Positions 11,459-12,406 of a stretch of DNA of 64,000 nucleotides are shown in pieces. The stretch's first letter is position 1. The number at the start of each line of letters is the position of its first letter. The notes below the pieces were generated by a model. The model saw only the letters and a list, made by a program, of their open reading frames with translations. It did not search any database and was not told the DNA's origin. Both the position numbers and the translations under genes were made by a program. This DNA comes from Escherichia phage teqhad, in the sequence record NC_054933.1; one strand, written 5' to 3'.

Positions 11459-11534
11459 TGGTCGAGGCAGTAGGGATCGAACCTACGACCCAGGACTTAG
11501 AAGGTCCTTGCTCTTCCTTCTGAGCTATGCCCCG
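11459..11534 (-). tRNA. tRNA-Arg (anticodon UCU)
   Basis: Cloverleaf read by eye on the minus strand; T-arm gtagg-gatcgaa-cctac; anticodon loop CUUCUAA; encoded CCA. Confidence 0.7.
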
Positions 11535-11538
11535 TAAT

Positions 11539-11614
11539 TGGGGTGACCGATGGGAGTCGAACCCATGACTACGAGAATCACAATCTCGAGTTCTACCAAC
11601 TGAACTACGGCCAC
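11539..11614 (-). tRNA. tRNA-His (anticodon GUG), tentative
   Basis: T-arm atggg-agtcgaa-cccat; anticodon loop UUGUGAU; discriminator C73. Confidence 0.5.
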
Positions 11615-11728
11615 ATTAATACCTACTCCAACAATCAAGATGTCTTCACACGAAATTAAGAGAAGAGTGATCAGTTCAACCCCTATAATCGCGTCAAGTA
11701 GATATTAATGTGACAGTTGTCACAAATT

Positions 11729-11803
11729 TGGCGGACGTGATAGGATTCGAACCTATAACCAATCGCTTAACAGGCGATCGCTCTGCCATTGAGCTACACA
11801 TCC
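11729..11803 (-). tRNA. tRNA-Asn (anticodon GUU), tentative
   Basis: T-arm atagg-attcgaa-cctat; anticodon loop CUGUUAA. Confidence 0.55.
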
Positions 11804-11807
11804 AAAT

Positions 11808-11894
11808 TGGTGGGGAGTGGTGGAGTCGAACCACCCGAGTCGCAATGACAATGGATTTACAGTCCACACCGCTACCTCTACGGGATAACTCCCC
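11808..11894 (-). tRNA. tRNA-Tyr (anticodon GUA), class II with long variable arm
   Basis: Anticodon loop CUGUAAA; long variable arm; overall pattern parallels E. coli tRNA-Tyr. Confidence 0.6.
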
Positions 11895-11907
11895 TTAATT
11901 CTTAATT

Positions 11908-11982
11908 TGGTGGCCCTGGGTGGAATTGAACCACCATCTGGCGATTATGAGTCGCTTGCTTGAACCTTCCAGCTACAGGGCC
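11908..11982 (-). tRNA. tRNA-Ile (anticodon CAU, presumably lysidine-modified) or tRNA-Met
   Basis: Anticodon loop CUCAUAA; acceptor ggccctg/cagggcc; T4 tRNA-Ile also carries CAU. Confidence 0.7.
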
Positions 11983-11983
11983 T

Positions 11984-12059
11984 TGGTGCTGATTGACGGA
12001 ATCGAACCGCCGACCTTCTCATTACAAGTGAGTTGCTCTACCTACTGAGCTAAATCAGC
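11984..12059 (-). tRNA. tRNA-Thr (anticodon UGU)
   Basis: Anticodon loop CUUGUAA; T-arm ggcgg-uucgauu-ccguc. Confidence 0.75.
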
Positions 12060-12064
12060 AAAAC

Positions 12065-12154
12065 TGGCGGAGGCGATAGGATTTGAACCTATGAGTCGCC
12101 GGAGCGACTGCCGGTTTTCAAGACCGGTGCATTAAACCACTCTGCCACGCCTCC
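12065..12154 (-). tRNA. tRNA-Ser (anticodon UGA), class II
   Basis: Reverse complement reads GGAGGCGUGGCAGAGUGG...CUUGAAA...GGUUCAAAUCC...CGCCUCCGCCA, matching T4 tRNA-Ser as recalled. Confidence 0.85.
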
Positions 12155-12156
12155 AG

Positions 12157-12230
12157 TCTCCATACAAGGATTTGAACCTTGGACCTCCTGATCCCAAATC
12201 AGGCGCTCTACCAAACTGAGCTACACGGAG
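12157..12230 (-). tRNA. tRNA-Pro (anticodon UGG), no encoded CCA, abuts tRNA-Ser
   Basis: Anticodon loop UUUGGGA; T-arm caagg-atttgaa-ccttg; 3' end 2-3 nt from the tRNA-Ser 5' end. Confidence 0.75.
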
Positions 12231-12240
12231 TAAATTAAAT

Positions 12241-12314
12241 TGGAGCGGATAATGAGAATCGAACTCACATCATCAGATTGGAAGTCTGAGGTAATACCAT
12301 TATACGATATCCGC
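12241..12314 (-). tRNA. tRNA-Gly (anticodon UCC)
   Basis: Anticodon loop CUUCCAA; acceptor gcggata/tatccgc. Confidence 0.8.
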
Positions 12315-12319
12315 AAATT

Positions 12320-12406
12320 TGGTGCGAGAAGTGGGACTCGAACCCACAAGGAAATCATTCCGCAGCATTTTAAGTGCTGTGCCTTTACCAATTTGACCAT
12401 TCTCGC
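12320..12406 (-). tRNA. tRNA-Leu (anticodon UAA), class II
   Basis: Reverse complement reads GCGAGAAUGGUCAAAUUGGUAAAGGCACAGCACUUAAAAUGCUGCGG...GGUUCGAGUCCCACUUCUCGCACCA. Confidence 0.85.

Follow-up and report, generated by a model that had tools for sequence, protein, structure and literature searches.

Escherichia phage teqhad carries a cluster of ten tRNA genes, all of them minus-strand, at 11459–12406 of the 64,000-nucleotide stretch of its genome (NC_054933.1) that was analyzed here and that we call the window, and three of these genes, encoding the tRNAs for Tyr, Asn and His, belong to a block that replaces the segB segment of phage T4. Published experiments with tRNAs of phages T6 and T5 lead us to favor the reading that these extra tRNAs serve mainly as spares against host tRNA nucleases, with the supply of tRNA-Asn and tRNA-Tyr as a secondary benefit and with homing endonucleases shuffling the gene content of the locus; by analogy with those experiments, we regard this as probable.

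Both ARAGORN and the Rfam RF00005 covariance model, run over the whole 64-kb window, call ten tRNAs at the same coordinates, in agreement with an earlier sequence-only reading of this DNA that had proposed a cluster of about ten tRNAs, and ARAGORN finds none elsewhere in the window. RF00005 gives each of the ten a score that equals or exceeds its gathering score; nine of them reach 59 to 74 bits (with E values for the whole window of 2e-10 to 2e-14). In a check that had been set beforehand, tRNAs were called at 11539..11614 (His), 11729..11803 (Asn, 74.1 bits) and 11808..11894 (Tyr) with the anticodons GTG, GTT and GTA, as predicted. The weakest call is the 87-nt class II tRNA-Tyr (GUA) with its phage-type variable arm (30.3 bits versus a gathering score of 29), though ARAGORN and the annotation of this gene in RefSeq also support it, as does a difference of only one nucleotide from tRNA-Tyr of phage T6.

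A probable role as spare tRNAs against host nucleases

The close T6 relative of this tRNA-Tyr has been detected by northern blot, and T6 growth in the face of Septu, which cleaves tRNA-Tyr, is restored when the T6 tRNA-Tyr is overexpressed or amplified; phage T4, which has no tRNA-Tyr gene, fails to escape Septu (PMC13096335). The tRNAs of phage T5 resemble those of the window in defense-relevant regions. Its tRNA-Tyr (T5 10341-10428), which is reported to resist retron-Eco7 via a distinctive variable loop (reported in PMC13096335), is identical to the window's gene at 74 of 88 positions, and no mismatch falls in the variable arm or in the greater part of the T arm. In the case of PARIS, the nuclease AriB cuts host tRNA-Lys, tRNA-Thr(UGU) and, secondarily, tRNA-Asn(GUU) at U36AAUC|N41, which in tRNA-Asn is U36AAUC|C41, and the tRNA-Asn of T5 contributes to rescue from this system (bioRxiv 10.1101/2025.02.04.636281). 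Both the window's tRNA-Asn (GUU; U36AAGCG) and that of T5 (U36AAGU) depart from the host motif at position 39. By analogy, the phage-encoded Tyr, Asn and His tRNAs would keep decoding going after defense nucleases have cleaved or depleted the tRNAs of the host.

Several points weigh against this reading. The published demonstrations concern only T6 and T5 tRNAs, which are other alleles than those of the window and include no tRNA-His. Septu cuts the phage tRNA-Tyr as well (PMC13096335), so that the benefit against this system is one of dosage and not of resistance. Charging of the phage tRNA-His by the E. coli histidyl-tRNA synthetase (HisRS) is uncertain because the G-1 identity element discussed below is missing. 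Finally, a consensus scan for a promoter of the tRNA unit revealed no enrichment (15 sites versus 10.4 +/- 3.6 in shuffles).

Relatives of the tRNA-Tyr gene are found well beyond the T-even phages. It is 96.7% identical to genes of rV5-like phages (records FFH2, FV3 and CR3), and its likeness to these and to the T5 gene points, at the level of sequence, to a phage-type tRNA-Tyr that is common to unrelated phage families through cross-family exchange or shared selection. The Tyr-Asn pair (11743-11900, minus strand) also matches clusters of tRNA-Tyr, tRNA-Thr and tRNA-Asn genes on E. coli plasmids such as NZ_CP019027 at ca. 83% identity. The plasmids bearing these clusters are ca. 110 kb in size (most of them 109-112 kb, one of them 72 kb) and may be phage-plasmids.

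Alternative explanations of the extra genes

The sequence-only reading had expected the additional isoacceptors to change the codon supplementation of the phage. Taken as the sole explanation, i.e., that the extra tRNAs match supply to phage codon usage, this appears rather unlikely to us, even though part of the idea is supported. Across the 61 long open reading frames of the window, Asn and Tyr are heavily used (5.96% and 4.31% of residues, compared to ca. 3.9% and 2.8% in the E. coli proteome), chiefly as AAT and TAT, with 73-77% NAT codons, and demand could explain the presence of their tRNA genes. The eight T4-type tRNAs serve codons ending in A that E. coli seldom uses, and these codons are frequent in the same reading frames (TTA 31, GGA 23, ACA 21, ATA 15 and AGA 11 per 1000 codons). 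The idea fails for His, which accounts for just 1.39% of residues (ca. 2.3% in E. coli). Furthermore, the only E. coli isoacceptors for His, Asn and Tyr carry the same GUN anticodons (checked for hisR), so that the three phage tRNAs add no decoding capacity and read no new codon. The phage has also lost tRNA-Gln(UUG) despite a CAA frequency of 24 per 1000 codons. Pure demand matching fits poorly for these reasons; if the extra tRNAs mainly stand in for cleaved host tRNAs, supply for an Asn- and Tyr-rich, NAU-biased phage proteome would be a secondary benefit.

Slightly less likely still is a purely selfish origin of this arrangement, in which the set of tRNAs carries no adaptive significance but simply reflects the last homing cassette, segB or HNH, to have overwritten the locus. 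The observations that speak for it begin at the place of tRNA-Gln, which, as the sequence-only reading had claimed, is taken by an HNH endonuclease gene (12413..13021, minus strand, 202 aa, ATG at 13021). Profile searches in PHROGs and Pfam assign its product to phrog_14736 (E 5e-124); the match to the Pfam HNH family (PF01844) reaches 17.3 bits, under the cut-off of 21.4 bits, and the translation contains the catalytic-type motif HIDGNNKNH...N...CPNCH. The blastn comparison with T4 and the junction sequences show that this gene precisely replaces tRNA-Gln from about its nucleotide 10 through its 3' end, leaving a 9-nt remnant of the tRNA-Gln 5' end, TGGGAATTA, at 13026..13034 (minus strand). 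Between this remnant and the start codon of the HNH gene, which is downstream, there are 4 nt (13022-13034, minus strand), and the remnant's GGGA, 9 nt upstream of the ATG, could be a ribosome-binding site. Within a collection of 50,697 phage records, the HNH gene is found in 62 records and the T4-type Gln-Leu junction in 448, a presence/absence pattern at a homologous site; T4-type segB is found in 126 and the complete His-interval-Asn-Tyr block in 185, with Asn-Tyr alone in more. Several configurations thereby exist side by side. Phages T2L, RB1 and RB3 lack segB, and T2L carries tRNA-Met (CAU), tRNA-Tyr, tRNA-Asn and a variant tRNA-Arg in its place; SegB prefers to cut the tRNA-Asn gene of these three phages, and the Met-Tyr-Asn-Arg segment of T2L is excluded in crosses (Brok-Volchanskaya et al. 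2008, PMC2330249).

What this explanation leaves out is the maintenance of the cloverleaves across genera via compensatory changes, the occurrence of the same phage-type tRNA-Tyr in unrelated phage families, and the measured fitness effect of the T6 tRNA-Tyr (PMC13096335). Homing endonucleases may all the same have a large share in a locus whose tRNAs are kept mainly as spares: SegB and the HNH enzyme, by overwriting neighboring tRNA genes in mixed infections, would largely set which tRNAs a given phage carries.

A tRNA-His without G-1 and its structured leader

The tRNA-His gene (GUG; 11539..11614, minus strand) encodes its CCA and keeps C73, but its position -1 (11615) is a T, so that the canonical encoded G-1 opposite C73 is absent; E. 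coli hisR begins with an encoded G-1. The same T at -1 is found in eight genera of Straboviridae and in T5 (NC_005859), whose RefSeq tRNA-His feature (5207-5284) begins at this very base, whereas two unrelated phages, a jumbo phage of Erwinia and a phage of Arthrobacter, carry G there. The baseline for this comparison consists of six extra phages picked individually because random viral loci held no tRNA-His. A literature search for phage tRNA-His without G-1 returned nothing relevant.

These findings bear on a last alternative, that some extra genes lack function or do not encode ordinary elongator tRNAs. It draws on the T at -1, given that G-1 with C73 is the major identity element for E. 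coli HisRS (PMC9976931), and on the score of tRNA-Tyr barely above the threshold, but we consider it improbable since the tRNA-His retains all four stems, for which Jiaodavirus has compensatory substitutions, along with C73 and the GUG anticodon, since the T at -1 recurs in eight genera of Straboviridae and in T5, since a T5 tRNA-His with changed anticodon is an effective amber suppressor (RefSeq note), and since the T6 tRNA-Tyr is expressed and active (PMC13096335).

Directly upstream of tRNA-His, the 114-nt interval that separates it from tRNA-Asn contains an unannotated structured RNA of 95 nt (11615..11709, minus strand). It folds into a three-way junction (minimum free energy -32.7 kcal/mol, z -4.4) with a closing stem of 14 bp, the terminal base of which coincides with position -1 of tRNA-His. 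The fold is strongly supported by covariation, which we assessed against 500 shuffles and with controls of slid pairing partners. In an alignment of nine different sequences, pairing holds for 96.7% of cells and compensatory changes are seen at nine pairs, a result that is reached by 0 of the 500 shuffles, and sliding the partners lowers pairing to 39-51%. Taken together, the nine-sequence alignment and a 13-sequence alignment that had been fitted to the model, and whose figures are to be read with this caveat, give 95.7-96.7% of cells paired and 9-10 compensatory pairs.

Homologues of the 95-nt RNA are present in 354 phage records from five genera of Tevenvirinae and a few Vequintavirinae, and among the matches listed none carries an RNA annotation at this element. 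It always lies directly 5' of tRNA-His in Tequatrovirus, Karamvirus, Jiaodavirus, Gelderlandvirus and, with a weaker match, Winklervirus. In the few Vequintavirinae, e.g., W70, it is found between tRNA-Gly and tRNA-Gln with a closing stem of wholly different sequence that is nevertheless still complementary. The apical part of its long hairpin comes in two unrelated versions, and pattern scans of IMG/VR and metagenomes added few further variants. Edwardsiella phage PEi26 retains only a 12-bp hairpin before tRNA-His, which suggests from sequence comparison that the helix adjoining the 5' end of the tRNA is the conserved feature. No second copy of the RNA is found in the window, no Rfam family matches 11615-11709 at E values up to 5, and our literature search found no paper on such a leader RNA.

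Known RNAs and other elements do not account for this spacer. A relationship to the stable RNAs rnaC and rnaD was rejected with local alignment scores of only ca. 10. Phage T5 has a stable RNA with unknown function, RNAIII (106 nt, 5285-5390), that likewise abuts the 5' end of its tRNA-His (5207-5284), but the two RNAs are alike in position, general architecture and the long terminal stem only, and a covariance model run with filters off gave no match at RNAIII. A sigma-70 promoter was dismissed because the spacer contains TTGACG without any acceptable -10 element on the minus strand, because such sites are not enriched over shuffles, and because the part that would form the -10 element is replaced in the type-B variants. 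A hammerhead-like core, CUGAUCA, has C in place of the essential G and sits in a segment that is missing from the type-B variants, as judged by eye. An origin from bacterial genomes was likewise discarded: 26 pattern matches in genome contigs all came from bacteria that are taxonomically unrelated and for the most part environmental, and the model accepted none of them (best score 19.5 bits). Just before the 95-nt element and directly after tRNA-Asn, there is in addition a perfect small hairpin, GTGACA-ac-TGTCAC (11709-11724, minus strand), of which Karamvirus and Gelderlandvirus share the conserved 3' half.

Both the 95-nt RNA and the tRNA-His without G-1 may be undescribed. We only tentatively suggest, and rate it below even chances, that the leader helix and the invariant U-1 form a genuine, undescribed functional pairing and with it a non-canonical route to the maturation or identity of tRNA-His. 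If so, the leader might fix the cut of RNase P such that U-1 stays on the tRNA, or it might release a stable RNA analogous to RNAIII of T5.

The T-even tRNA region and its variants

The window is from a Tequatrovirus, and the tRNA unit is the T-even tRNA region in a common form for which dozens of T4-like coliphage genomes already carry annotation. Many deposited genomes share 95-97% identity with the window over 15 kb, and the 2.1-kb stretch at 11000-13100 matches 1093 phage records, 48 of which cover at least 80% of it. The closest arrangements are those of vB_EcoM_Ozark (NC_054927) and slur03 (NC_042129), in which RefSeq annotates all ten tRNAs in identical sequence along the locus and an HNH endonuclease gene just upstream of tRNA-Leu (98.1-98.4% identity over the 2.1 kb); they differ from the window by small indels only, apart from an extra 351-nt open reading frame downstream of tRNA-Arg in slur03 that is missing from the window. 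Another phage, ACG-C40 (NC_019399), matches 95% of the query at 98.3% identity. Given the annotations of Ozark and slur03, the ten-tRNA layout is already known, and among the sampled haplotypes of the locus it is a common one.

We compared the unit with T4 (NC_000866) using blastn, alignment to T4 features, junction sequences and pairwise identity. It lies on the same strand and at the same site as in T4, between e.8 and trna.2/ipI/57B (by blastn and annotated neighbors in T4 and Ozark), and the region is flanked by e.x genes and by trna.2-4, ip, 57B-57A and gene 1. The order in T4 is Gln-Leu-Gly-Pro-Ser-Thr-Ile-segB-Arg-rnaD-rnaC. Of the match to T4 asserted in the sequence-only reading, the core Leu-Gly-Pro-Ser-Thr holds (96-100% identity, gene by gene): tRNA-Leu (UAA; 12320..12406), tRNA-Gly (UCC; 12241..12314) and tRNA-Pro (UGG; 12156..12230), all on the minus strand like the rest of the unit, are identical to their T4 counterparts, as is the body of the class II tRNA-Ser (UGA; 12065..12154), and tRNA-Thr (UGU; 11984..12059) differs at 3 positions (73/76 identical). 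For tRNA-Ile and tRNA-Arg the match is positional only. The CAU tRNA (11908..11982) and tRNA-Arg (UCU; 11459..11534) share with T4 just anticodon and position (51/75 and 53/76 identical, respectively) and are other alleles, divergent ones of T2L type by sequence. The window further differs from T4 by the absence of tRNA-Gln, where the HNH gene stands, and by a block of CAU tRNA, Tyr, Asn, spacer, His and Arg in place of Ile-segB-Arg, in which the segB segment is replaced by Tyr, Asn, the 114-nt interval and His; across 11505-11962, blastn against T4 detects no homology to segB.

The downstream part of the unit is again that of T4, with a homologue of the species 2 stable RNA rnaD (11338..11457; by alignment to the T4 rnaD feature), a homologue of the species 1 stable RNA rnaC (11193..11331; 136/139 identical to T4) and a terminator-like hairpin followed by a T run at the end of the unit (11119..11142). 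Also shared with T4 is the abutment of tRNA-Pro and tRNA-Ser, and here the sequence-only reading, which had claimed no encoded CCA on tRNA-Pro, was correct. Reading of the 3' ends shows CCA encoded in nine of the ten tRNAs; tRNA-Pro, the exception, which is 2 nt away from tRNA-Ser, ends in ...GGAG-A73-C-U, and this runs straight into G1 of tRNA-Ser. Unlike in T4, where the end of tRNA-Ser is CCGTAA and thus UAA in place of CCA, the window encodes CCGCCA (CCA at 12065-12067), so that only tRNA-Pro of the pair needs CCA repair. In T4, tRNA processing involves RNase P and RNase BN as well as the CCA-adding enzyme. If classical T4 work applies here, the tRNA unit would be co-transcribed into polycistronic precursors on which the host's RNase P and enzymes that trim 3' ends act, with Pro-Ser handled as a dimeric precursor and tRNA-Pro completed by the CCA-adding enzyme of the host.

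The CAU tRNA has been labeled differently, as "Met" by ARAGORN and as tRNA-Ile2-CAT in the RefSeq record of Ozark, and its T2L counterpart was named Met (PMC2330249). We infer that it is probably an Ile2-type tRNA and would be a lysidine substrate. Its anticodon-arm core of 13 nt, GCGACUCAUAAUCGC, and its acceptor start GGCCC match an ileX sequence, and the known determinants for TilS are the anticodon arm and the acceptor pairs C4-G69 and C5-G68, as in E. coli ileX.

Compared with T2L and the RB phages, the window likewise lacks segB, has Tyr and Asn between the CAU tRNA and Arg, and carries variant CAU and Arg genes. At the place of the window's HNH gene, T2L still has tRNA-Gln; the match of RB3 to the block is confined to Asn-Tyr (at 98.9% identity), and tRNA-His has no occurrence in the main text of the study on T2L, RB1 and RB3 (PMC2330249). 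T5 is similar in that HNH endonuclease genes and stable RNAs whose function is unknown lie scattered among its tRNA genes, but it belongs to another virus family and has a much larger set of tRNA genes.

Other insertions surround the unit. Near-identical terminator-like hairpins, AGCCC[C/T]AGCCGAAAGGTTGGGGCT followed by a T run, are found at 10564-10587 and 11119-11142 (minus strand) on either side of an open reading frame of 157 aa (10595-11068; phrog_2280, unknown function) that is not in T4, suggesting that it was inserted via recombination at the terminator repeat. Two more open reading frames missing from the T4 locus, at 13121-13645 (minus strand, 174 aa; phrog_2290, unknown function) and 9857-10021 (minus strand, 54 aa), make the region still more of a mosaic.

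The cluster as such changes nothing in the picture of T-even phages: RefSeq already has versions with ten tRNAs, and discussion of the additional Asn and Tyr genes dates back to 2008. In practice it is of use as context, because a phage with a phage-type tRNA-Tyr and tRNA-Asn linked to escape from defenses may differ from T4 in its host range on strains with Septu, retron-Eco7 or PARIS. Beyond this, the locus poses small testable questions of tRNA biology, i.e., how a tRNA-His without G-1 is matured and charged in E. coli and what role its structured leader RNA plays. If the proposed pairing of leader helix and U-1 is true, tRNA-His without G-1 would be general in Straboviridae and T5-like phages, whose hosts have a HisRS that relies on G-1.

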